DNA of 64,000 bases, from assembly GCA_964545165.1 (NCBI GenBank), contig CAZJEQ010000004.1:17716-81715 (forward strand), read 5' to 3'. The notes beneath the pieces were generated by a model. That model was not told where the DNA came from. It was given only the letters and a program-made list of their open reading frames with translations, and did no database searches. This document shows, piece by piece, positions 1 to 61,774 of this stretch. The first letter of the stretch is position 1. Every line of letters begins with the position of its first letter. The DNA comes from an uncultured Candidatus Saccharibacteria bacterium. Lineage in GTDB: Bacteria; Patescibacteriota; Minisyncoccia; Phycocordibacterales; UBA2100. Made by a program: the position numbers and the translations under genes.

Positions 1-282
1 CCTATTAATTGGGGAGCGGCCGTTGCCTTTTATCTGGTCTTTACCATCGGTATGTACTACTTTGCCGTCCTTCCTGCGCACGCGAAGCACTCGCTCGCTG
101 CAGCCGCGCTCGCGGGCGCGCTCTACGGATTTTTCACGTATGCGACGTACGATCTGACGAACATGGCGACCTTAAAGGCGTGGCCACTTTCGATAACGCT
201 CATCGATATTGCATGGGGCGTATTCATCGGTGCTGCGCTCGCCTCTGCGGGGTACTTGCTGCTCGCATTTTTCTCTCGCTAG
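1..282 (+). CDS. membrane protein, C-terminal part (5' end lies outside the window)
   Basis: Open frame runs from position 1 with no stop; hydrophobic segments; stop codon at 280-282. Family not identified. Confidence 0.5.
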   Translation, partial: PINWGAAVAFYLVFTIGMYYFAVLPAHAKHSLAAAALAGALYGFFTYATYDLTNMATLKAWPLSITLIDIAWGVFIGAALASAGYLLLAFFSR

Positions 283-301
283 ATCGTGCAAGTAACAAAA
301 C

Positions 302-336
302 AAAAAGCGCCGATAAGGCGCTTTTTGTTTTTGTTC
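302..336. terminator. bidirectional rho-independent terminator
   Basis: AAAAAGCGCC-gataa-GGCGCTTTTT hairpin with flanking A and T runs, lying between convergent genes. Confidence 0.6.
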
Positions 337-341
337 ACTAT

Positions 342-509
342 TTACTGGGCGCCGTTCTCGCCGATGTTGATCTCGAGGCTAGCACCATCATCTTTCGCCA
401 TGCCCGGGCCGTATGTCTTGTACCACCACACGCCACCACCGACGAGGACCAAGAGCACTACGACAAGAAGGATCGTATTCACGTTGCTCGAATTATTATT
501 CATACGCAT
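342..509 (-). CDS. small membrane protein (55 aa)
   Basis: ATG..TAA ORF encoding MRMNNNSSNVNTILLVVVLLVLVGGGVWWYKTYGPGMAKDDGASLEINIGENGAQ with one TM helix; missing from the ORF track because it is under 60 aa; ends next to the terminator. Confidence 0.4.
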   Translation of the reverse strand: MRMNNNSSNVNTILLVVVLLVLVGGGVWWYKTYGPGMAKDDGASLEINIGENGAQ

Positions 510-543
510 TCAAAATTACTGCTATGCCAAAATCGTAGCACGC

Positions 544-1197
544 TTAGGCGCGGGCGAGTGCGATGAGTGAGACGTTCGCGCCAGCGCGGCGAAGCGGTGT
601 CGCGGCGTTGACCAGTGTCGCGCCCGTGGTGGTGACGTCGTCGATGAGAAAGACGTGTGCGTTTTTGAGGAGCGCAGGATCGGGCAAGGCGAACGCACCG
701 GCGACATTTGAGAGGCGCTCGGATCGATGGAGCCGTGTTTGCTGCTTGGTTGCCTTCGTGCGCATGAGTGCGTGCGGCATGAGCGTCGCCGTGGTTCCCG
801 TTTTGAAATCCGCTGGCAGTGCATTGAGGACCATCGCTATTTGATTGAAGCCGCGCTCTTTCTCGCGTGATCGGTGGAGTGGGACAGGGATAATCAGCAC
901 GGTCTTTTGTGAAAAGGCTTTGTGCGAGGCGATTTCTTCGGCCAGGTATTCTTCAAGCAATTTTGCGGCGATAGATGCGGCATGCACCGATCGATCGTAT
1001 TTGAGCGACCGGATGAGATCTTGCACCGACGGCTCGCGATACTCCATGAGTGTCACGATTTTCGCGCCAAGCAGCTCGTGCACGGACGGGGAGAGCGAGA
1101 AATCTACTGCTGTGCGCGATTGTGTGCGTGCGGCACGAGCACGCAGGGGGAGTATCGCATCGAGTACCAGCTCCAGCGCTCGCCAGAGTGCTTTCAT
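544..1197 (-). CDS. comF: ComF-family phosphoribosyltransferase (competence protein ComFC-like)
   Basis: C-terminal PRTase motif VFLIDDVTTTGATL; upstream Cys-rich region. The 355-aa track ORF is an artefact that overlaps the divergent pterin dehydratase gene; start taken at internal Met (MKALWRAL). Confidence 0.7.
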   Translation of the reverse strand: MKALWRALELVLDAILPLRARAARTQSRTAVDFSLSPSVHELLGAKIVTLMEYREPSVQDLIRSLKYDRSVHAASIAAKLLEEYLAEEIASHKAFSQKTVLIIPVPLHRSREKERGFNQIAMVLNALPADFKTGTTATLMPHALMRTKATKQQTRLHRSERLSNVAGAFALPDPALLKNAHVFLIDDVTTTGATLVNAATPLRRAGANVSLIALARA

Positions 1198-1230
1198 ATA
1201 CAGATAATAGTATCGCGCTATAATCCCGTC

Positions 1231-1557
1231 ATGACAGAACTCGCACAAAAGAAATGCGTCGCCTGCGAAGGTGGCACGAGTCCGCTTAATCGCACCGAAG
1301 CAGAAATACTGCTCAAACAGCTCAACGACTGGCGCCTCTCGGGCGATGCGCGCTGGATTTCCAAGGAATTCAAATTCAAGGATTTTGCAGAGGCGATGGC
1401 CTTTACCAACAAAGTCGCCGACATTGCCGAAAGCGAGGGGCACCATCCAGATCTTCAGGTGTCGTGGGGCAAAGTCGTCGTCGAGCTGACGACACACGCC
1501 ATCAAGGGTCTGAGCGAGAATGACTTCATCGTCGCCGCGAAAGTTGACGAGTTGTAA
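1231..1557 (+). CDS. pterin-4-alpha-carbinolamine dehydratase
   Basis: MTELAQKKCVACEG...GHHPDLQVSWGKVVVELTTHA, the PCD/DCoH signature; TATAAT at 1219-1224 lies 6 nt upstream of the ATG (leaderless). Confidence 0.8.
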   Translation: MTELAQKKCVACEGGTSPLNRTEAEILLKQLNDWRLSGDARWISKEFKFKDFAEAMAFTNKVADIAESEGHHPDLQVSWGKVVVELTTHAIKGLSENDFIVAAKVDEL

Positions 1558-1635
1558 GAATGCCCACATAAATACGACAGCTGCGGCAAAAGCTGGATTT
1601 CCCAGATACACCAGCGGCGTGGAAAGGGCTACATC

Positions 1636-2145
1636 ATGGCGCCTCTCTCTACCTCAGCGCAGACCAGTCGTCTGTCGATCCTGAGGCTGATTGGTTCGGT
1701 CACGATCGTTCTCGGCGAGGACCTCGATCCAGAGACCTTCTTTCGTACAAGGGACTTGTTCGTGTCAGATGAATTCCTAAACAGGGTTGTTCCAAAGGCG
1801 CGACGCGTGCCGGCCGGCACGACCTTTACGGTCGACATCGCTGTCATCGGTCGTGAAGCTGCGGATGGGGTGACCGACCAGGAGATCAAAAGCGCGCTGC
1901 CGAGCAACTACCTGTTCGACGAGACGCAGCTTTGCGCGGTCATCGCGGGACTGATTGCGATGCGGTCTTGGGGTGAAGCAGATACCTGGTGGAAGAACAT
2001 GTACAGCAACTTTCTGTACACCGATTCCGGCGTCGCCAGCATCATGTGGGCCGAGGGTCGCGGTCGCAGTCGTCACGTCGACCTGTGGGAATACAACGAT
2101 CGCAAACGGCGCCCTGGTTGTCGGGTACTCAAGCTTGCCGGATGA
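1636..2145 (+). CDS. hypothetical protein
   Basis: 169-aa ORF with genome-typical codon usage; GGAAAGGG Shine-Dalgarno 8 nt upstream; the antisense ORF looks like junk. Confidence 0.5.
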   Translation: MAPLSTSAQTSRLSILRLIGSVTIVLGEDLDPETFFRTRDLFVSDEFLNRVVPKARRVPAGTTFTVDIAVIGREAADGVTDQEIKSALPSNYLFDETQLCAVIAGLIAMRSWGEADTWWKNMYSNFLYTDSGVASIMWAEGRGRSRHVDLWEYNDRKRRPGCRVLKLAG

Positions 2146-2269
2146 TAAAGCGCTGCAACCATGTCGGCCTGCGGCAGACAGGATCCTCGGGCCTCCACCG
2201 CGTGTGCCCGAGGATTTTTTATGACGTTCCATCATCTAGTGATGCGAGCGGGTGGTATAATTTTGCTCA

Positions 2270-3421
2270 ATGGCGTTCTCCTTGAGCAATTTATTGAAAA
2301 ACATCCCCGGTGTCGGGGGCGGCGGAGGAGAAACGAGCGTGCTGGGCATCGATATCGGTGCCTCGAGTGCCAAAATCGTGCAGCTTCGCGCGGCGCGCGG
2401 CGTCGCCGTCTTGGAGACCTATGGCGAAATCGCGCTCGGTCCCTACGCAGAGCAGCCGATCGGCAAGGCAGTGAAGCTCTCCCCCGAGAAACAGGCGGAA
2501 GCACTGAAGGATCTCATGCGCGAAGCCAATGTGACCTCACGTTCTGCGGGCGTCTCCATCCCATTTTCTGCGAGCCTCGTGTCGGTACTTGAGTTGCCAC
2601 CCGCGGATAGCGAGTCGCTCAAGCGCATCGTCCCCATTGAAGCCCGCAAATACATTCCTGTGCCTGTCTCGGAGGTCTCACTCGACTGGTTTGTGATTCC
2701 TCACGAAGAGGGGACGGACTCGGCATTTGATCAGCTACAAGACAAGTCCACGATGCGTGCTCGCGGTCAGGAGATCCTGCTCGTGGCCATTCAAAATGCC
2801 ACGCTCAAGGCGTTTCAATCGATCATGAACGGGCTCGGCGTGAGTGCGAGCTTCTATGAAATGGAAATATTCGGCACGATGCGCTCGTGTCTGTCGCACG
2901 GACTCGCTCCCGTGTGCATCGTTGATCTCGGCGCCTCGACTACCAAGATGTATATCGTCGAGCGCGGTGTTGTGCGCATGACGCACCTTCTCTCGGTGGG
3001 TGGTCAGCAGATGACCGAGACCTTGGCGCGTTCGATGAGCTGGGAATTTGATAAGGCAGAGCGCGAAAAGCGTGAACGCGGGCTGGTGCCGACCGACTCG
3101 TTTAGTCAGGAAGAGAACGATCGCATTCGTGAAGCGCTGTTATCAACACTCACGCGAGTGTGTGGAGAGGTGAATCGAGTACTATTGAGTTACGGGCAGC
3201 GATACAACAAGAATGTCTCGAGCGTCGTTTTGACCGGAGGCGGGTCAGCGCTACCCGGCATCGCAGGAGCCACGAAAAGCCTCTTGAGCGCGGAGGTGAC
3301 CATAGCGGACCCGTTTTCAAAGACCGAAGCACCGGCGTTCCTTGCCAAAGTCCTCTCCGGAATCGGCCCAACCTTTGCGGTAGCCGTCGGACTCGCACTC
3401 AGAAAGCTCAAACAAAACTGA
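2270..3421 (+). CDS. pilM: type IV pilus assembly protein PilM (actin-like ATPase fold)
   Basis: GIDIGASSAKIVQL... and VDLGASTTKMYIVE actin-like motifs; first gene of the pilMNO set; TATAAT 8 nt before the ATG. Confidence 0.85.
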   Translation: MAFSLSNLLKNIPGVGGGGGETSVLGIDIGASSAKIVQLRAARGVAVLETYGEIALGPYAEQPIGKAVKLSPEKQAEALKDLMREANVTSRSAGVSIPFSASLVSVLELPPADSESLKRIVPIEARKYIPVPVSEVSLDWFVIPHEEGTDSAFDQLQDKSTMRARGQEILLVAIQNATLKAFQSIMNGLGVSASFYEMEIFGTMRSCLSHGLAPVCIVDLGASTTKMYIVERGVVRMTHLLSVGGQQMTETLARSMSWEFDKAEREKRERGLVPTDSFSQEENDRIREALLSTLTRVCGEVNRVLLSYGQRYNKNVSSVVLTGGGSALPGIAGATKSLLSAEVTIADPFSKTEAPAFLAKVLSGIGPTFAVAVGLALRKLKQN

Positions 3422-3437
3422 TCTACGCATACTTTTT

Positions 3438-4199
3438 ATGGAAAGCGGCATTCAATCATCATTCATCCCACAAGACGCGGGGAAGGTCACCGTCTCACCC
3501 CGGCAGCCGAAAGGCGGTGGTCTCGGGGATTTAATGTTTTTGATTGCGATTGTGTTGTTTGTGGTCTCGATTGCGCTCGCGGGCGCTGTCTTTCTCTACA
3601 ATCAGTATCTCGGGACGAGCGTGACCTCAAAAGTCGAGCAGTTGAAGAGTGCGCGCGAAGCATTCGAGCCGGCACTCATTCAGCAGCTCACTCGTTTGGA
3701 TGATCGTATGCGCGCAGCGGACAGCGTGCTCTCGGTGCACATGGCACCGACGGCATTCTTTCTCGCACTCTCGCAAGTGACGCTCACCAACGTGTCCTTC
3801 CGAAGCATTGATCTTGATGCGAGCGACCCCAAGAAGATTACCGTCAAGATGCCGGGCGTTGCGCAGAGCGTGAATTCCATTGCGCTTCAAGCGGATCTCA
3901 TGAGCAAAAACGGCGTCGTCACGAATCCTATTTTCTCCAACATCTCACGACAAGCAGATGGGGTGCACTTCGACATGACGGCGCACATCAATCCTGCAGC
4001 AGTTAATTTCGTATCGCTCGTTGGTGCTGCCACTCGTGCACTCGCTCCGCAGCAGACTGAGGTATCAGGACAAGGCGTGTCGCCTTTTGAACAGCAAGCA
4101 GCAACGCCTGATGCAGCGACACAAACGCAGGCGCAAACACCGACACCGACGACCGAGACAGGGGATACTTCGGGTGCGAGCCCCTTCACCAATCAATAA
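3438..4199 (+). CDS. pilN: PilN-like pilus assembly protein (single TM, periplasmic domain, Thr/Pro-rich tail)
   Basis: N-terminal TM helix; position after pilM; coiled region. Confidence 0.7.
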   Translation: MESGIQSSFIPQDAGKVTVSPRQPKGGGLGDLMFLIAIVLFVVSIALAGAVFLYNQYLGTSVTSKVEQLKSAREAFEPALIQQLTRLDDRMRAADSVLSVHMAPTAFFLALSQVTLTNVSFRSIDLDASDPKKITVKMPGVAQSVNSIALQADLMSKNGVVTNPIFSNISRQADGVHFDMTAHINPAAVNFVSLVGAATRALAPQQTEVSGQGVSPFEQQAATPDAATQTQAQTPTPTTETGDTSGASPFTNQ

Positions 4200-4201
4200 C
4201 T

Positions 4202-4777
4202 ATGACGCGCACCATCGTATCGTTCATCGCACTCATCGCCGCAGCGGGTGTGTTCTTTGGGTACACGAAGCCGGCGTATGACTCTTCCAGCGCGGTACGC
4301 GGGCAAATCGCTGAATACGACACGGCGCTCTCGAAGGCGAGCGAATTGCAGGCGCTCAAACAAAACCTCCTCGGGCGATACAACTCGTTTAATCCGGCAG
4401 ATATCGAGCGCCTCCAAAAGCTCTTGCCTGACCATGTCGACAATGTCCGACTCATCCTTGATCTGGACAATCTTGCGGGTCGCCATGGTCTCGCGCTCCA
4501 GAATGTCGCGGTCTCCGCGCCGCAGACGGCGAGCGATTCGCAGACTGCTGCTGGATCAATCTCGTCGTCCAAGCAGCGCTACGATTCACTGACGCTGAAA
4601 TTCACCACCGTCGCGACGTACGACACCTTCCTACAGCTGCTCGCCGATCTCGAATCCTCGCTTCGTATCGTCGATCTCGTGTCGTTGCGCCTCGCGCCCG
4701 CTTCGGGTACGGAGTCGCGCTCCGCGCAGCCGCTCTACACGTACGACATTACTATCCGTACCTATTGGCTCAAATAA
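4202..4777 (+). CDS. pilO: PilO-like pilus assembly protein
   Basis: N-terminal TM helix; position after pilN; typical size. Confidence 0.65.
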   Translation: MTRTIVSFIALIAAAGVFFGYTKPAYDSSSAVRGQIAEYDTALSKASELQALKQNLLGRYNSFNPADIERLQKLLPDHVDNVRLILDLDNLAGRHGLALQNVAVSAPQTASDSQTAAGSISSSKQRYDSLTLKFTTVATYDTFLQLLADLESSLRIVDLVSLRLAPASGTESRSAQPLYTYDITIRTYWLK

Positions 4778-4781
4778 CCAT

Positions 4782-5135
4782 ATGCAGTGGATCAAGACAC
4801 ACCTGCTCCTCTTCATCGGCATCGTCGTCGTGGTGGCGGGTGCCATGTGGTACGGACTTACACAAAACGCAACGCCGACGCCGGTGTTAACGACGGTGAC
4901 GACCTCGGGATCACCGACGCAAGAGAGTGCCGATCAGGAACTTGTCGCGACACTCTTGACGCTTCGCGCCGTGACGCTCTCGGGTACGATTTTTCAAGAT
5001 CCGGCATTCGTAACGTTGCGCGATTTCGGTACGACCATCGTCGCGGAACCGATTGGTCGTCAAAATCCATTCGCACCACTTGGCAGCCGCACTACAGGTA
5101 CCACCGCATCCACGACCGGAGGCACTCAACGCTAA
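4782..5135 (+). CDS. small membrane protein in the pilus operon (PilP-like position)
   Basis: TM helix plus Thr-rich linker; its stop codon abuts the pilB start. Confidence 0.5.
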   Translation: MQWIKTHLLLFIGIVVVVAGAMWYGLTQNATPTPVLTTVTTSGSPTQESADQELVATLLTLRAVTLSGTIFQDPAFVTLRDFGTTIVAEPIGRQNPFAPLGSRTTGTTASTTGGTQR

Positions 5136-5139
5136 GAGT

Positions 5140-6798
5140 ATGGCGGGGGATGACGAAACACAGGTCGAGGTGCCAGTGCGCACTATCGGCGATACAAAGA
5201 TTCCATACGACGTGCTCAAGGTCGTGCCCGAAGAGAGCGCGGCGCACTACGGGCTCGCGCCACTGGGTATCGTCGACGAGTGCCTTGAGATCGGTATGCT
5301 CGATCCCGGCAACATTGAGGCGATAGACGCGCTCAATTTCATTTCGCGCACCTCCGGATTGCCCTACAAGATCTTCAAAATTACCAAAGAGGATTTCGAG
5401 CGCGTGCTGACCATGTATCGCGGTTTGCGCGGCGAGGTGGCGCAGGCGGTCTCGGATCTCGCGACAGAGACGAAGCCCGAGACACCGCAGAAGCCGCAGA
5501 GCGAGACGCCGCGACTCGATATCGACAGTCCGACGCTCTCTGCGGGTGCCGCCATTCAGGAAGATGCACCGGCGATCAAGATTGTGTCTACGATTTTGCG
5601 CTATGCGATCGATGGGAAGGCGTCAGATATTCACATCGAGCCGCTCCCTGCAGGTGTGCGTGTGCGTTATCGCGTCGACGGTGATTTGCATACATCGGTG
5701 GTACTCCCGCTCACTACGCATCGCGCTATCGTCGCTCGTATCAAGGTGCTTTCTTCCATCCGCCTCGACGAGAGCAGAAAGCCACAAGACGGTCGTTTCT
5801 CGGCGACGATCGATAATCGTCAGATCGACTTCCGTGTTTCGACCTTCCCCTCGTATAGCGGCGAGAAAGTCGTGCTCCGTATTCTTGATCGCGAGCAGGG
5901 CTTCATACCCCTCGACCAGATTGGACTCACTCCCGCGCACTTGGCGACGCTGCGCCGTGCGATTAATCGACCGAATGGCCTCATTCTCATCTCCGGTCCA
6001 ACCGGATCGGGTAAATCAACGACACTCTATTCACTGCTCTCGGAGCTTGATCGTGAACACAAAAACGTCCTCTCGCTGGAAGATCCGATCGAGTATTTCA
6101 TCGACGGCATTATTCAATCGCAGGTACACCCGGAAATCGGGTACACCTTTGCCTCGGGTCTGCGCACGACACTTCGTCAGGATCCGGATGTGATCATGGT
6201 CGGCGAAATCCGCGATGGCGAAACAGCGAAGCTTGCGATCCAGGCGGCGCTCACCGGTCACCTCGTACTCTCGACGATTCACACCAACGACGCGATTGGT
6301 ACGATTCCACGCCTCATCGACATGGGTGTCGAGCCGTACCTCATCCCGCCGGTCTTGGTGTGCTCAATTGCTCAGCGCCTCGTGCGTACCTTCTGTCCGG
6401 GTGCCGAAAAAGAAATTGAGCTTTCCGTAAGTGAACAAGAAGAGATCCGTGCAAATATGGAAACATTGCCGGCGAGCGCGCGATTCCCGGTGCCGACGAA
6501 GGCGTGGGAAGCGGTGAAGCTCCCGACCTGTCCGACTGGTATGCGCGGTCGTATGGCGGTATTTGAGATTCTCGAAATGAATCCCGAGATTGAGCGCATC
6601 GTGCTCTCGAATCCGGTGGAGTCCAAGCTCTGGGCCAAGGCGCGATCGCAGGGCATGCTCACCATGCGCGAAGACGCGATTCTCAAAGCGCTCGATAAGA
6701 AGGTGCCGTTTGCGGAAGTGAATACGTTGCGCACCCTGAGTCTGCCCGAAGAAGAAAAAGAAGAAGTGGAGAAGCCTGCTCCTGCACCTGCGGTATGA
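5140..6798 (+). CDS. pilB: type IV pilus assembly ATPase PilB (GspE family)
   Basis: GSPII_E N-terminal domain; Walker A GPTGSGKST; Asp and His boxes; tetracysteine motif. The track ORF is longer; start set at ATG 5140 immediately after the upstream stop. Confidence 0.9.
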   Translation: MAGDDETQVEVPVRTIGDTKIPYDVLKVVPEESAAHYGLAPLGIVDECLEIGMLDPGNIEAIDALNFISRTSGLPYKIFKITKEDFERVLTMYRGLRGEVAQAVSDLATETKPETPQKPQSETPRLDIDSPTLSAGAAIQEDAPAIKIVSTILRYAIDGKASDIHIEPLPAGVRVRYRVDGDLHTSVVLPLTTHRAIVARIKVLSSIRLDESRKPQDGRFSATIDNRQIDFRVSTFPSYSGEKVVLRILDREQGFIPLDQIGLTPAHLATLRRAINRPNGLILISGPTGSGKSTTLYSLLSELDREHKNVLSLEDPIEYFIDGIIQSQVHPEIGYTFASGLRTTLRQDPDVIMVGEIRDGETAKLAIQAALTGHLVLSTIHTNDAIGTIPRLIDMGVEPYLIPPVLVCSIAQRLVRTFCPGAEKEIELSVSEQEEIRANMETLPASARFPVPTKAWEAVKLPTCPTGMRGRMAVFEILEMNPEIERIVLSNPVESKLWAKARSQGMLTMREDAILKALDKKVPFAEVNTLRTLSLPEEEKEEVEKPAPAPAV

Positions 6799-18927: not shown

Positions 18928-18999
18928 AGCGGGGTGGAGCAGTAGTAGCTCGCCAGGCTCATAACCTGGAGGTCGGGGGTGCAAGTCCCTCCCCCGCAA
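18928..18999 (+). tRNA. tRNA-Met (CAT), initiator-like
   Basis: Cloverleaf AGCGGGG..CTCATAA..; unpaired 1:72 (A:A); close to E. coli tRNA-fMet (CGCGGGGTGGAGCAG...CCCCGCAACCA); CCA not encoded. Confidence 0.8.
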
Positions 19000-19003
19000 C
19001 ATG

Positions 19004-19039
19004 AAGACAAAACACTCGCTTTCGCGAGTGTTTTGTCTT
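19004..19039 (+). terminator. strong terminator hairpin after the tRNA
   Basis: Perfect 16-bp palindrome AAGACAAAACACTCGC-tttc-GCGAGTGTTTTGTCTT. Confidence 0.6.
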
Positions 19040-19049
19040 AGGGCGACTT

Positions 19050-19229
19050 CTAATCGTTGAGAATACTAATGACTACTTGTGCAATGAGTCCGACAAGGAG
19101 AAATACGAGCGCGATCCAAAATGGCTTCCATACCCAAAAGAAGACCGCCTGCATTGCCGTATAGACGAAAAAGATAAAGACGAGGGGAAGCACCACGAAG
19201 GAGTTGAACATGAGAATCTTGTTCCACAT
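19050..19229 (-). CDS. small membrane protein (59 aa)
   Basis: MWNKILMFNSFVVLPLVFIFFVYTAMQAVFFWVWKPFWIALVFLLVGLIAQVVISILND; TATACAAT 6 nt upstream (leaderless). Confidence 0.4.
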   Translation of the reverse strand: MWNKILMFNSFVVLPLVFIFFVYTAMQAVFFWVWKPFWIALVFLLVGLIAQVVISILND

Positions 19230-19306
19230 GGTTGCATTGTATACCTTTTCAGGTGTGCTCTCCCGCTCGCAAAAGAGCAAGATTTGCGATATTCTCTCGG
19301 GTAACG

Positions 19307-19383
19307 TCGGGGTAGCTCAGTCGGTTAGAGCGAGCGTTTCATAAGCGCTAGGTCGTGGGTTCGAATCCCACCCTCGACACCAA
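19307..19383 (+). tRNA. tRNA with CAT anticodon (elongator Met or Ile2-lysidine)
   Basis: GTCGGGGTAGCTCAGTCGGTTAGAGC...TTCATAA...GGTTCGAATCC...CACCA; CCA encoded. Confidence 0.85.
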
Positions 19384-19391
19384 GAAAGAGG

Positions 19392-20771
19392 TCAGCTGAA
19401 GAATCCGATCATGAAGTCGGTAATACCGAAGAAGTCGAGGAGGAGTTTGACGTTCAAGACGACGATGATCGTTGCGACGATCCACGCACAGATCTGGAGC
19501 CAGAGCTTGTTGGCAAACTCGCCCATTTTGACCTTGTCGCTCGTGAAGAGGACGAGCGGAATGACCGCGAAGGGGAGCTGCAAGCTGAGGATGACCTGAC
19601 TCAAAATGAGCAGTTGCGCAGTACCATTCTCACCGTAAAACATCGTGACGATAATGGCTGGCACGATTGCCAAGAGGCGCGTCGCGAGACGGCGCATCCA
19701 CGGGGCGATCGTGATCTTGAGGAAGCCTTCCATGACGATCTGTCCGGCGAGCGTCGCGGTGAGTGTAGAATTTTGTCCCGAGGCAAGCAGTGCGAGTGCG
19801 AAGAGCGTGCTCGCAGCGCCCGCGCCGAGAAGCGGCGTGAGTAGCTGATACGCGTGCTGGATTTCGGCGACATCATTTTGCCCGCGGGTGAAGAAGGATG
19901 CGGCGGCGATGATGAGAATCGCGGCGTTGATGAAGAGCGCAAACATGAGCGCCACGGTCGAATCGATGGTCGCGAATTTGATTGCTTCACGCTTGCCGGC
20001 AACATCGGTTGCGTAGGTACGCGTCTGCACGATGGACGAGTGGAGGTAGAGATTATGCGGCATCACGGTCGCGCCTAGAATGCCGATCGCGATAAAGAGC
20101 ATCGCGGGATTCTGGATGATTTCAGGGCGGGGAATAAAGCCGCTGAGTACTGCCGCGATCTCCGGCTGCGCCATGACGACGACGGTGAAGAGGCAGGCAG
20201 CGACGGTCGCGATGAGCGCGATGACGAGTGCTTCCAGGTAACGGAAGCCCTTATTCTGCAAGAAGAGAATGAGGAGCACATCGAATGCCGTGATACACAC
20301 GCCCCAGATCAGCGGAATGCCGAAGAGGAGATTGAGTGCAATCGCGGTACCGATTACCTCCGCGAGGTCGCACGCGACGATGGCGAGCTCACAGAGCATC
20401 CACAGTGCCAGTGAGACCGGCTTCGAGAAGTGGTCGCGGCAGGCTTGCGCGAGATCGCGACCAGTGACGATGCCGAGCTTGGCGGCAAGTGCCTGCAAGA
20501 GGATCGCCATGATATTGGAAATCAAAATCACCGCGAGGAGGGTATAGCCAAAGGAAGACCCGCCCGCGAGGTCAGTCGCCCAATTACCCGGATCCATGTA
20601 GCCGACAGCCACGAGGTACCCCGGACCAGAGACGGCCAGGAGCTTACGCCAGAAGGTGGCGTTGACGGGGAAGTGAATGCTGCGATTCACTTCGGGCAGA
20701 CTCGGCACCGTATTTTCGAGGCGCCAGGTCTTGCCGCGCAGACGCGCAGAATAGACATCGAGAAAACTCAT
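19392..20771 (-). CDS. mntH: NRAMP-family divalent metal (Mn2+/Fe2+) transporter MntH
   Basis: DPGN motif and MPH motif; 11 TM helices; 459 aa. Confidence 0.85.
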
Positions 20772-20921
20772 AGAAGTACTAGTAGTAGATAGAGAAACGA
20801 ATAATAAGTAATGGAGAAGCTCGCGCTTTGGCGGGCTCTCTTCAATAGGAGTGGGACGAATCCCGAAACAGTTACTCCATTACCATAGCTGAAGCGCGAC
20901 AGGTCGTCAAGGGTATAACGC
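20772..20921 (-). promoter_or_regulatory. structured 5' leader of mntH (candidate Mn2+ riboswitch-like element)
   Basis: Minus-strand TTGACG-17-TATGGT promoter, then GGAGUAACUGUUUC-GGGA-UUCG-UCCC-ACUCC nested hairpin and long-range pairs (GUAAUGGAG/CUCCAUUAC); contains GGAGUAA, resembling the yybP-ykoY GGGAGUAG core. Confidence 0.3.
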
Positions 20922-20946
20922 AAAAATGCCCCGTAGGGCATTTTTG
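20922..20946. terminator. bidirectional terminator (terminates tRNA-Asp on the minus strand)
   Basis: AAAAATGCCC-cgta-GGGCATTTTT. Confidence 0.55.
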
Positions 20947-20952
20947 CTTTTG

Positions 20953-21026
20953 CGCGAGTGACGGGACTCGAACCCGCAGCCTCTCCCGTGACAGGGGAGT
21001 GCTCTAACCAATTGAGCTACACCCGC
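20953..21026 (-). tRNA. tRNA-Asp (GTC)
   Basis: Reverse complement GCGGGTGTAGCTCAATTGGTTAGAGCACTCCCCTGTCACGGGAGAGG..GGTTCGAGTCCCGTCACTCGCG. Confidence 0.85.
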
Positions 21027-21126: not shown

Positions 21127-21681
21127 ATGGGATCGATGCCATACAATGTATCTATGTCTCAGCACATGGGAGGAGGGAAAGAGAAAATACAGCTGAATCA
21201 CGCTCCCGCGAATTTTGAGGTCTCAGATATGCACAAGCTACATCTGAGTGATACGACTGCCGTCGCGGGTCTTAAAAATATGCTCAAGAGACGGACCATA
21301 TTGGACCGATTCCACAAAAAAGAATCCTTGCGTGACAACCTCGACATGTTTGAAGAGGAGAACGGTGGGAAAATGTTTGCGATCCGCGAGGGCGAGACTA
21401 TTAAGGGCTTTCTCGGTCTTACGATTGAGCAGACAGACGCCGGGCGTGTCGCGCATATCAAGAGTCTGCGCACGGCGGAGCGCAATCCGGAGATGATGCA
21501 AGCGCTTATTAAAGAAGCACTTGCGTATCTGGAAGGCAGGGCGGATACCGTGTCACTGGCCTTTTCCGCAGATCAAGCACATATCCTTCACGAAAGTGAG
21601 CATGTACTGACTACCTTAAAGTTTGAAGCACGAGGCCACGATGAGCGGGGGTACGAGATTTTCTCGAAGAGTCTGCACTAA
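21127..21681 (+). CDS. hypothetical protein, possibly a GNAT-fold acetyltransferase
   Basis: Weak GNAT-like motif (IKGFLGL...RVAHIKSL...); start uncertain because several Met codons are available. Confidence 0.45.
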   Translation: MGSMPYNVSMSQHMGGGKEKIQLNHAPANFEVSDMHKLHLSDTTAVAGLKNMLKRRTILDRFHKKESLRDNLDMFEEENGGKMFAIREGETIKGFLGLTIEQTDAGRVAHIKSLRTAERNPEMMQALIKEALAYLEGRADTVSLAFSADQAHILHESEHVLTTLKFEARGHDERGYEIFSKSLH

Positions 21682-22070
21682 GCGCTCGCGCCCGGGAGTG
21701 ATGAATTATCTCTGCTCGGCACGTGCCGAACTTTTTTGAATTCTTCATCGAGCTCGCGGAGTTTGTCCTCGACATCTTCTTCGATATCGATCAGCTCGTT
21801 GCGTGCGGGGTCAGTGGCTTTGATGAGCTCGTCGAGTTTGAGCTGGATGGCATGTGCGTCGCGATTCTGAGTGTTTTGAATCAGGAAGACCATGAGGAAG
21901 GTGAGGATGGTCGTCGTGGTGTTGATGAAAAGCTGCCACGTAGTCGAGAAATTAAAGATAGGCCCCACGACCGCCCAGACGATGACTACCAGTGTGGCGA
22001 CCACAAACGCCCAGCCCGAGCCCATAATCCCGCTCGCTTTGTGTGCGATCCGTCTGAAAAATTCTTGCAT
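21678..22070 (-). CDS. low-affinity iron permease family membrane protein (PF04120-like)
   Basis: WAFVVATLVVIVWAVVGP...LIQNTQNRDAHAIQLKLDELI. The 273-aa track ORF overlaps the HD-domain gene and is an artefact; start set at MQEFF. Confidence 0.55.
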   Translation of the reverse strand: MQEFFRRIAHKASGIMGSGWAFVVATLVVIVWAVVGPIFNFSTTWQLFINTTTTILTFLMVFLIQNTQNRDAHAIQLKLDELIKATDPARNELIDIEEDVEDKLRELDEEFKKVRHVPSRDNSSLPGASA

Positions 22071-22136
22071 GTAATGAGAAGTGTACACCCAAAATCCGAC
22101 CCCCGTCCCGTTTTCTACACATGCTAGAGTTGAGTT

Positions 22137-22784
22137 ATGACCGCAGTAGAGATCTACAAGCAATACAAGATTCCGCCTTTTTTGCAGCTCCATCAGCTCC
22201 GTGTCGCGGCAGTTGGTAAACAGATTGCGGATAATTTTCGCAGTACGCTCGATAGTCGTTCGATCATCCTCGCGTGCTTGTTCCACGATATGGGCAATAT
22301 CATCAAGGTCGATTTCTCGCGATTCCCAGAGACCTTTGAGCCGGAAGGCGTCCCATATTGGCAGCATGTGCAGGAAGATTTTAAGCGTCGCTTCGGACCC
22401 GACGAACACCATGCGACGATTGCCATCGTCCACGAGATGCACCTGCCGCTCCAAGCGGTGAAATATATTGATGGCGTCGGATTCTCGAAGCTCAAGCATA
22501 CGAGCGCGACACCTTCGTACGAGCAGAAGATTGTCGAATATGCGGATCTACGTGTCGCGCCGTTTGGCGTGACGAGTATGCGCGACCGTCTTGAAGAGGC
22601 CCGTATTCGCTACGCGGCGCGTGAGAGCGACATGCCAAAAGACGCCGATCGTTATAGCGAGCTCCACGCAGCTGCCGAAGCAGTCGAGCGCCAGATTTTC
22701 TCCAGTGCGAGTATTGAACCAGACGATATTACCGATGCTTCAGTACAATCAATCGTCGAAGAGCTGCGCTCGTATTCGATCTAA
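22137..22784 (+). CDS. HD-domain phosphohydrolase
   Basis: H...HD motif (LFHDMGN) plus downstream His/Asp residues. Confidence 0.75.
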   Translation: MTAVEIYKQYKIPPFLQLHQLRVAAVGKQIADNFRSTLDSRSIILACLFHDMGNIIKVDFSRFPETFEPEGVPYWQHVQEDFKRRFGPDEHHATIAIVHEMHLPLQAVKYIDGVGFSKLKHTSATPSYEQKIVEYADLRVAPFGVTSMRDRLEEARIRYAARESDMPKDADRYSELHAAAEAVERQIFSSASIEPDDITDASVQSIVEELRSYSI

Positions 22785-59953: not shown

Positions 59954-61774
59954 ATGTGCGGCATTTTTGCGTATACGGGCAAGAAAAACGCAGGCGAGGT
60001 CCTGCTCGACGGACTCGTCTCTCTTGAATATCGCGGCTACGACTCGGCTGGTATCCATGTGCCCGAGAGCGGCTTGATTCGTGCCGTAGGTCCTGTGGCA
60101 CACCTGCGTCGCAAAGTGCCTGCCGGATACTTTGGGCTCAGCGGTATCGCGCACCTGCGCTGGGCTACGCACGGTGAGCCGAATGAAGTGAATGCACATC
60201 CGCACTCGGATTGTGATGGCGAAATCTGGATTGTGCACAATGGCATCATCGAAAATTTTCGCGAGCTCAAAGCTGAGCTTGCTGCGAAGGGACACACCTT
60301 TAAATCTGAGTCTGATACGGAAGTGCTCGCACACCTCATCGAGGATGAAATGAAAAGCGATGCGGATTTTGAGAAAGCCTCGCTCCGCGCATTGAACCGT
60401 GTGCGTGGCACCTACGGGATCGCGATGCAGTACAAGAAAGAGCCGGAGCGCCTCATTGCGGCGCGCATGGGCTCTCCCATTGTGCTCGGTCTCGGCGATG
60501 GTGAGCACTTCATCGCGTCCGATGCCTCGCCGATTTTGCCGCACACCAACAAGGTGGTCTTTCTCGAAGACGGGGAGGTGGCGGTCCTGACGCCCGGTGA
60601 ACATCGCATCTTCAAGCTCGACGCGTCGCAGGTAAAGCGCGATGCCACCGAAATTGAGTGGAGTCCTGAAGAAGCACAGCGCGGCGGCTACGAGCACTTT
60701 ATGCTTAAGGAAATTATGGAGGGTCCCGAGGTGGTAGAAAATTCGGTACGTGGACGCCTGCTTGTCGAAGCGGGCAACGTGAAGCTCGGAGGACTCGAGA
60801 GTGTGGCAGAGCAGCTCGCAAAAATCGATCGCATCATCATTGTCGCGTGCGGGACCGCCTACTATGCGGGGCTGATCGGCGAGTACATGATCGAAGAGCA
60901 CGCGGGAATTCCCGTCGAGGTAGAACTCGGCTCTGAATTCCGGTACCGAAAGCCCGTTATCAATGCACGAACTGCCGTCCTCGCGATTTCGCAGAGCGGT
61001 GAGACGCTCGATACGCTCGAAGCAGTACGTGAAGGGAAGCGCAATGGTGCGCTCGCCCTCGGTATCGTAAACACGGTGGGTTCGACCATTGCGCGCGAGA
61101 CCGAAGCCGGCGTCTATAACCATGCGGGGCCGGAAATCAGCGTGGTCTCCACCAAAGCATTCCTCTCACAGCTCACCGTGCTCTCGCTCCTCACTATTTT
61201 CCTCGGTCGCCAGCGCGGCATGTCGGAGGAGACCGGAAAGAAGCTCGCGGAAGAGCTCAAGCACTTGCCGGAGAAACTCCGCAGTATTCTTGCGCAGGAG
61301 CCCGAGATTAGAGCGCTCGCAGAAAAATACAAAGACAGTCGCGACTTTATGTTTATCGGTCGCAAGTATAATCTCCCGATTGCGTACGAAGGTGCACTCA
61401 AACTCAAAGAATGCTCCTATGTGCATGCCGAAGGGTGCGGTGCAGGGGAGTTGAAGCACGGACACCTCGCCATGATCGATGAGAATTTCCCGATTGTCGC
61501 GATTGCGACCAACGACAGCGTCTATGGCAAGGTCTTCTCTGCTATCCAGCAGGTGAAAGCCCGCAAAGGGCCCGTCATCGCGATTGCGACAGAAGGTAAT
61601 AAAGAGATGGCGGAAGTTGCGGATGACGTGATCTATGTGCCGAAGACGATCGAGATGCTCTCACCGATTCTCAACGTCGTGCCGCTCCAGCTCTTCGCGT
61701 ATCACTTCTCGCGCCAGCGTGGCCTCAATGTCGATCGTCCAAGAAACCTTGCTAAGTCTGTAACTGTTGAGTGA
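59954..61774 (+). CDS. glmS: glutamine--fructose-6-phosphate aminotransferase
   Basis: N-terminal MCGIFAY (Cys2 nucleophile); two SIS domains; C-terminal ...LAKSVTVE. Confidence 0.95.
   Translation: MCGIFAYTGKKNAGEVLLDGLVSLEYRGYDSAGIHVPESGLIRAVGPVAHLRRKVPAGYFGLSGIAHLRWATHGEPNEVNAHPHSDCDGEIWIVHNGIIENFRELKAELAAKGHTFKSESDTEVLAHLIEDEMKSDADFEKASLRALNRVRGTYGIAMQYKKEPERLIAARMGSPIVLGLGDGEHFIASDASPILPHTNKVVFLEDGEVAVLTPGEHRIFKLDASQVKRDATEIEWSPEEAQRGGYEHFMLKEIMEGPEVVENSVRGRLLVEAGNVKLGGLESVAEQLAKIDRIIIVACGTAYYAGLIGEYMIEEHAGIPVEVELGSEFRYRKPVINARTAVLAISQSGETLDTLEAVREGKRNGALALGIVNTVGSTIARETEAGVYNHAGPEISVVSTKAFLSQLTVLSLLTIFLGRQRGMSEETGKKLAEELKHLPEKLRSILAQEPEIRALAEKYKDSRDFMFIGRKYNLPIAYEGALKLKECSYVHAEGCGAGELKHGHLAMIDENFPIVAIATNDSVYGKVFSAIQQVKARKGPVIAIATEGNKEMAEVADDVIYVPKTIEMLSPILNVVPLQLFAYHFSRQRGLNVDRPRNLAKSVTVE

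Follow-up and report, generated by a model that had tools for sequence, protein, structure and literature searches.

The mntH gene of a Kaiserbacteria genome carries a conserved 29-nt element at the predicted 5' end of its mRNA. Sequence comparison makes this element a genuine lead to a metal-gene cis-regulatory element in CPR bacteria, and it is not the known Mn2+ riboswitch. Alignment of the four known Kaiserbacteria-type mntH loci that have no adjoining mntR gene places the element under purifying selection; in each locus it begins where transcription is predicted to start and keeps a constant spacing to a conserved sigma-70-type promoter. The element takes the promoter position that a palindromic MntR-type operator occupies in sister lineages. 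We regard it as probably a novel regulatory site, which may act as RNA or as DNA.

The element was analyzed within a 64-kb stretch of DNA (64,000 nucleotides in full, referred to here as the window) whose TypA protein has its best named relatives in Candidatus Kaiserbacteria, Paceibacterota and Patescibacteria, at 82–88% identity, which assigns the window to a CPR bacterium. The mntH gene lies on the minus strand at 19392–20771, with its ATG at 20771, and encodes a 459-aa NRAMP divalent-metal importer (PF01566, E 2e-135); homologues of this protein carry the source names manganese transport protein or Nramp family transporter. The same-strand neighbor upstream of mntH is a tRNA-Asp (GTC) gene at 20952–21026 of the minus strand, which was identified with ARAGORN and by the Rfam tRNA model (71.3 bits). 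A first-pass annotation of this DNA had placed a terminator hairpin behind the tRNA on the minus strand, in agreement with an inverted repeat found at 20950–20917, AAAGCAAAAATGCCC-TACG-GGGCATTTTTGCGTT, which has 15-nt arms that are 93% complementary, a TACG loop and a subsequent T-run. The repeat reads as the intrinsic terminator of tRNA-Asp. On the other side of mntH, positions 18928–19382 hold two plus-strand tRNA-Met (CAT) genes that stand on either side of a 76-aa hydrophobic ORF (19050–19280, minus strand) with no Pfam match.

The promoter TTGACG-17-TATGGT that had been proposed ahead of mntH is present. Its -35 hexamer TTGACG lies at 20905–20910 and its -10 hexamer TATGGT at 20882–20887 of the minus strand, 17 nt past the -35 box, and the promoter scan scores the pair as sigma-70-type with 9 of 12 consensus matches. 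One such site per 900 nt is not above chance by itself (the shuffle mean is 0.6), and the form recurs in the three related loci: across the four-locus alignment TTGACG does not vary and the spacer stays at 17 nt, and the -10 boxes of the relatives (TATGGT, TATTAT and TAGTCT) all fit TAnnnT. The predicted transcription start is G20875, 7 nt after the -10 box, which gives mntH a 5' UTR of 104 nt; the earlier description of a leader with its own promoter thus stands as to the conserved promoter, but not as to the length of about 115 nt. Leaders of the four mntR-less loci are 100–158 nt long with C/G ratios of 1.4–2.5. The part of the window leader that follows the element (20772–20846, minus strand) is poorly conserved, has more C than G and contains no Shine-Dalgarno sequence and no terminator. 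Across the four loci, neither the leader beyond the element nor the sequence ahead of the -35 box can be aligned in any meaningful way. The terminator scan found no terminator-like site in the mntH leader (20772–20875), and its folds contain no stem followed by a U-run.

The leader is also unusual for its genome. Shine-Dalgarno sequences are absent at mntH and at almost all genes of the window (for example those at 2270, 13673, 17552, 28291 and 57900). TAnnnT boxes are enriched about six-fold at 4–10 nt before start codons and occur there in 13 of the 32 window genes; because these boxes sit just before the start codons, many of the mRNAs are suggested to be leaderless, and the Kaiserbacteria genome of the window appears to use mostly leaderless mRNAs. 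It is against this suggested background that a 104-nt mntH leader stands out.

The conserved element, GTAACTGTTTCGGGATTCGTCCCACTCCT, spans 20847–20875 of the minus strand and was delimited by four-locus alignments and a covariance model of the element, termed R1. The comparison comprises four loci, namely the window and the related loci L161, L162 and L171, and the element lies 7 nt past the -10 box in all of them. The arrangement common to the four is TTGACG, 17 nt, the -10 box, 7 variable nt and G-TAAYTGTTY-N-GGGN-NNNN-NCCC-W-CTCCT, and invariance begins at the base that is expected to be +1. Between 20875 and 20848, 19 of 28 columns are invariant, as is the next base, T20847. The proteins encoded by the four mntH genes are 78–93% identical, with three of them at 92–93%, and the four-fold degenerate sites of the genes are saturated, with 33–50% pairwise identity and 15% of sites invariant in all four. 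Relative to this 15% rate, the invariance of the element has a binomial P of about 2e-10.

The upstream neighbors of mntH differ between the loci, being a same-strand tRNA-Asp, a multicopper oxidase, no called gene and, in L171, an opposite-strand tRNA-Asp. The element therefore belongs to mntH and not to a tRNA, and the orientation of the gene in L171 means that tRNA-Asp is not part of it. R1 scores 44–51 bits in the four loci, and nothing reached 21 bits in 172 loci (about 1 Mb) of other mntH neighborhoods or in the rest of the window; the element is confined to the lineage that has no adjoining mntR. A 20-bit match in L163, within a histidine-kinase gene, is regarded as chance. A second copy of GTAACTGTT at 61760–61768, located within the 3' end of glmS and lacking a hairpin, is likewise attributed to chance. 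A pattern scan of viral contigs for the element gave 0 matches, and a profile search with the MntH N-terminus for further instances returned unrelated fragments only. NRAMP motifs are so widespread that they saturated the genome and metagenome scans with MntH, in which the best identity was 73%.

Protein searches place the window's mntH among nine clusters with the clade-specific N-terminus M-x-F-[RKL]-D-[IV]-Y. In five of these (P0004, P0005, P0006, P0010 and P0012; 8 loci examined), which are the closest mntH clusters outside the mntR-less group, an mntR gene (Fe_dep_repress) lies directly upstream of mntH. The mntR promoter of three clusters (six loci) consists of TTGACG, 17 nt, TAnnnT, 2 nt and the perfect palindrome TGTTCGTANNTACGAACA. 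The palindrome itself, TGTTCGTATATACGAACA, is perfect over 18 bp and can be written TGTTCGTA(TA/TG)TACGAACA. It is found 2 nt past the -10 box of the mntR-mntH operon promoter at L166 2489–2506, L170 2549–2566 and L172 158–175, and also in L167–L169, and is likely the MntR operator and autoregulation site. The loci L164 and L165 have split half-sites of the palindrome, TACATACGAACC ... TTGTTCGTATATG. A distant mntH clade (P0007 and P0011) has another conserved upstream block, AAGTAAGGGTGTAYTAATAAAGTTAGTATAWCCTAACATTT (L173 1–104; L174 2940–3000), which is probably a DtxR-type box unrelated to the 29-nt element; L174 has a divergently transcribed mntR.

The loci L161, L162 and L171 are like the window in having no adjoining mntR, and they are the only such close relatives found. 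No regulator gene of any kind lies next to mntH in the four loci. A tblastn search of the 64-kb window found no mntR homologue (best E 0.58), and the MntR-type palindrome does not occur in it either, even when 3 mismatches are allowed. The element shows no dyad symmetry beyond GGGN/NCCC, and its conservation is strand-asymmetric: the two blocks that flank the hairpin are neither inverted nor direct repeats of each other.

Other features of these neighborhoods were recorded alongside. L171 is syntenic with the window and shares its iron-permease gene, HD-domain gene, tRNA-Asp and tRNA-Met. The iron permease, which neighbors mntH in both genomes, is called in the window as a 273-aa ORF (21678–22499, minus strand) with a low-affinity iron permease domain (PF04120) at residues 148–264. 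This ORF overlaps an opposite-strand HD-domain ORF (22137–22784, plus strand) by about 360 nt, and since the L171 permease has only 129 aa, the true start of the window permease is probably internal. A tRNA-Met gene follows just downstream of mntH in L161 and L171 also. L171 further matches the group I intron model (RF00028, 60.3 bits, E 1.8e-13) at 4934–5169 of the minus strand, a position downstream of both mntH and tRNA-Met. A multicopper oxidase gene stands beside mntH in L161 (229–1065) and cupredoxin and HMA-DsbD_2 genes do so in L162 (2093–3525), which suggests a small metal-homeostasis neighborhood around mntH in these two loci.

Secondary structure was evaluated by folding against shuffled sequences and by covariation across the four loci. 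The minimum free energy (MFE) of the leader equals that of dinucleotide shuffles (z -0.07 and -0.70). A 32-nt motif folded alone yields -4.7 to -5.7 kcal/mol in the window, L161 and L162, and -8.6 kcal/mol in L171, where the MFE structure is a different fold; relative to shuffles, the motif has z-scores of -0.5 to +0.1 in all four loci. What is shared is the inner hairpin GGGA-UUCG-UCCC (20853–20864, minus strand), for which the relatives carry GGGA-UCCG-UCCC, GGGA-UUCG-UCCC and GGGC-ACCU-GCCC. It is paired in 16 of 16 cells, with one compensatory change, A-U to C-G, in L171; in that locus 5 of the 6 central bases have changed and the closing pair is still complementary. Three of the four loci have loops of the UNCG type (UUCG, UCCG and UUCG), and the fourth has ACCU. 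The energy of the hairpin is weak, at about -5 kcal/mol. With four sequences and one compensatory pair, its covariation score is reached by 109 of 500 shuffles and is for this reason not significant. RNAalifold, applied to the region from the start to the ATG of the four leaders, keeps only this 4-bp hairpin and a weak 3-bp hairpin.

These results qualify the structured leader that the first-pass annotation had described. A conserved 5' element that includes the GGGA-UUCG-UCCC hairpin exists, but the leader folds at chance energy. The larger arrangement GGAGU-AACUGUUUC-(GGGA-UUCG-UCCC)-ACUCC is found in the sequence and in the MFE fold, but this fold does not exceed shuffles. Its outer GGAGU/ACUCC helix is broken in 4 of 20 cells, and 3 of the 5 bases of its 5' arm are upstream of the predicted start. 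The proposed long-range pair GUAAUGGAG/CUCCAUUAC also exists, but it was rejected as a helix: its 5' arm (20883–20875) consists of the end of the -10 box and the untranscribed discriminator, and its 3' arm is conserved in no relative. Complements between the 5' segment and the start-codon region occur as AUUAC in L161 and L162 and as AGACGGU in L171. Pairing of the conserved 5' segment or of the CUCCU tail with the start-codon region was rejected as well, as it is not above shuffles (p 0.1–0.4).

The first-pass annotation had read the leader as a candidate yybP-ykoY-like Mn2+ riboswitch, with GGAGUAA resembling the conserved core of that family. The likeness of this heptamer to the L1 core is the only one, together with a gene that concerns manganese. 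At the gathering score, Rfam 15 matches nothing but tRNAs in the whole 64-kb window. With cmsearch, the check that had been suggested for this reading, neither RF00080 nor any other riboswitch model gives a match at the gathering score in the window, or at E<=10 with permissive filters over 20700–21000. The three orthologous leaders (L161, L162 and L171) have no riboswitch match, RF00080 included, at E<=5. A Thr_leader match at E 0.098, along with a Leu leader model, is a chance match driven by the tRNA terminator. The element is therefore no member of any Rfam family as represented by these models. The absence of an Rfam hit combined with a lack of covariation-supported structure in orthologous leaders had been named as evidence against the riboswitch; the first was found, and covariation came to the single compensatory pair, a score reached by 109 of 500 shuffles.

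Architecture and gene context argue in the same direction. The nucleotides of the L1 and L3 loops of yybP-ykoY RNAs are conserved and form the metal pocket. The aptamers of this family are built as three- or four-helix junctions, with coaxial legs P1/P2 and P3/P4 and docked L1/L3 loops (PMC6649816). No three- or four-helix junction is present in the MFE fold of the window or in the consensus fold of the four leaders, and the four-locus alignment and consensus fold hold no L3-like conserved block. The G residues of GGAGUAA are variable, with GGAG, GAAG, CGAG and UGGG at this place in the four loci, and they precede the predicted start. Genes switched on by yybP-ykoY mostly serve Mn export or tolerance (PMC8632737), whereas mntH encodes an importer. 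The yybP-ykoY reading is thus effectively refuted by sequence-based criteria and next to nothing speaks for it, which removes a tempting but wrong annotation.

The reading preferred here, tentative and somewhat short of probable, is that the element is a lineage-specific cis-regulatory element at +1 to +29 which acts as an RNA 5' module. We infer that, in this lineage, metal status controls mntH expression through this element in cis. The 5'-terminal module would consist of the invariant and mostly unpaired GUAAYUGUUY, the 4-bp hairpin with a free loop and the invariant CUCCU tail. This module would be recognized by a putative trans-acting factor with sequence specificity or, with lower likelihood, by the metal itself, and recognition would lower the output of a long, C-rich leader that has no Shine-Dalgarno sequence. 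The mRNA could become less stable, its transcription could end prematurely (Rho-type), or ribosomes could be kept from loading. A slight lean toward RNA comes from the strand-asymmetric conservation with flanking blocks that are not inverted or direct repeats, from the onset of invariance at the predicted +1, from a hairpin center that changes freely yet stays complementary, and from the retention of a C-rich leader of at least 100 nt in a largely leaderless genome. Weighing on the other side, the comparison has four members, three of them close, and one compensatory pair that is not significant; the hairpin is weak, no fold rises above shuffles and the MFE fold of L171 differs. No expression platform is seen among terminators, Shine-Dalgarno sequences or significant pairings with the start region, the transcription start is itself a prediction, and a GGG-N6-CCC core at the position of the sister repressor operator suits a DNA site about as well.

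That DNA site would be an operator, at which a metal-responsive repressor encoded elsewhere, other than the sister MntR, binds the +1 to +29 duplex and blocks initiation or promoter escape, the hairpin being incidental. This reading is rather unlikely but has real points in its favor: the element keeps a fixed register to the -10 box, as does the sister palindromic operator that starts 2 nt past the -10 box of a like promoter; the symmetric half-site change in the central GGGN-N4-NCCC dyad also suits a dimeric protein; and neither a fold above chance stability nor conservation in the remaining leader calls for RNA. It is less easily squared with GTAAYTGTT and CTCCT, which outside the 4+4 dyad are asymmetric and not repeated, an unusual pattern for dimeric metalloregulators. 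There is no likeness to the MntR-type palindrome at 3 mismatches and no regulator gene adjoining mntH in the four loci, and an operator leaves a leader of at least 100 nt in a largely leaderless genome unexplained. A by-eye comparison with Fur, Zur, PerR, LexA and CsoR-type boxes revealed no convincing match and serves as a lead only. Returning to RNA, the whole leader of about 100 nt could be nucleated by the 5' module as a new and very small Mn2+ riboswitch class that binds the ion and shuts off the importer; with no known family matching, a riboswitch here would have to be new. Such a class is improbable, even with the element conserved, mntR absent from these loci and a precedent in the Mn2+-responsive OFF element, outside yybP-ykoY, of enterobacterial mntH leaders (Shi et al., 2014, as cited in PMC8632737). 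Metal aptamers described so far form dense phosphate pockets within junctions of several helices (PMC6649816), while the leaders studied here share only a 4-bp hairpin, have no consensus structure in their remainder, fold at chance energy and offer no terminator or Shine-Dalgarno-sequestering platform. It is equally doubtful that the 29-nt module, perhaps with fast-evolving downstream structure, is the aptamer core of a new, unusually small metal-responsive riboswitch that is confined to CPR/Patescibacteria and replaces MntR.

Two further explanations were considered. A constitutive 5' mRNA stabilizer, or a part of the promoter and initial transcribed region, could set the level of mntH without a metal response, and this has little probability. 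The extreme 5' position is in keeping with it, as are the UNCG-type loops of three of the four loci and the 5'-terminal stem of 3–4 bp that could form if transcription started 1–2 nt upstream of G20875. The best-conserved part is the unpaired GUAAYUGUU, however, which a stabilizer hairpin does not need, and two of the four sequences have an interrupted outer stem. Some metal control is also to be expected of an element that replaces the metal-repressor operator of sister lineages, and this counts against a stabilizer. The idea that the block is coding, as a leader peptide (uORF) or as an N-terminal extension of MntH, draws on a CUG or UUG codon 4 nt into the motif and on a frame in L161 that is open into the mntH ATG. 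The corresponding frame ends after 9–10 codons in the window and L162 and is out of register with mntH in the window, the differences are mostly non-synonymous (R/W/G, D/A, S/P, S/A and H/L), and the MSFRDIY N-terminus of MntH is conserved across the wider clade. Coding is rejected as very improbable on account of the inconsistent frame ends and the non-synonymous changes.

To our knowledge, almost nothing is known about gene regulation in Patescibacteria (CPR), which are uncultured and have reduced genomes. The loci compared here indicate that two closely related lineages control one Mn importer differently, with an adjoining MntR and a palindromic operator in one and an unrelated 29-nt element and a long leader in the other. 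These two types of mntH control amount to a natural experiment, and a clean one, in how one regulatory system replaces another. Should the element work at the RNA level, it would join the small number of candidate cis-regulatory RNAs that are specific to CPR bacteria; as an operator, it would point to a further metalloregulator.

Among known systems, yybP-ykoY (RF00080) is comparable in that it acts in cis from the 5' leader of a gene for manganese homeostasis, and the window has the heptamer GGAGUAA. It differs from the window leader, which has neither a covariance-model match nor a docked L1/L3 junction and of which just 29 nt are conserved, and it is an ON switch mainly for exporters (PMC8632737) rather than a site ahead of an importer. 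[quoted passage not shown] The terminator-like structure reported there has no counterpart in the window leader, which contains no terminator-like site, and the 150-nt region gave no match at E<=1 to 5,426 E. coli genomes with blastn in its 'distant' setting. In position, the element resembles the sister MntR/DtxR operator (L166–L170 and L172), which has the same TTGACG-17-TAnnnT promoter and likewise follows closely on the -10 box. That operator adjoins an mntR gene and is a perfect palindrome of 18 bp, in contrast to the window element, which is asymmetric, unrelated in sequence, without an adjoining regulator and followed by a leader of about 100 nt. The iron-responsive element is a small 5'-UTR hairpin that is bound by the protein aconitase/IRP. 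The element described here differs from it in having no CAGUGN loop or bulged C and a loop that is free to vary. The likeness is a functional analogy only: in both, a short hairpin with conserved unpaired bases stands near the 5' end of a metal-homeostasis mRNA, where the mntH element would be read by a trans-acting protein.
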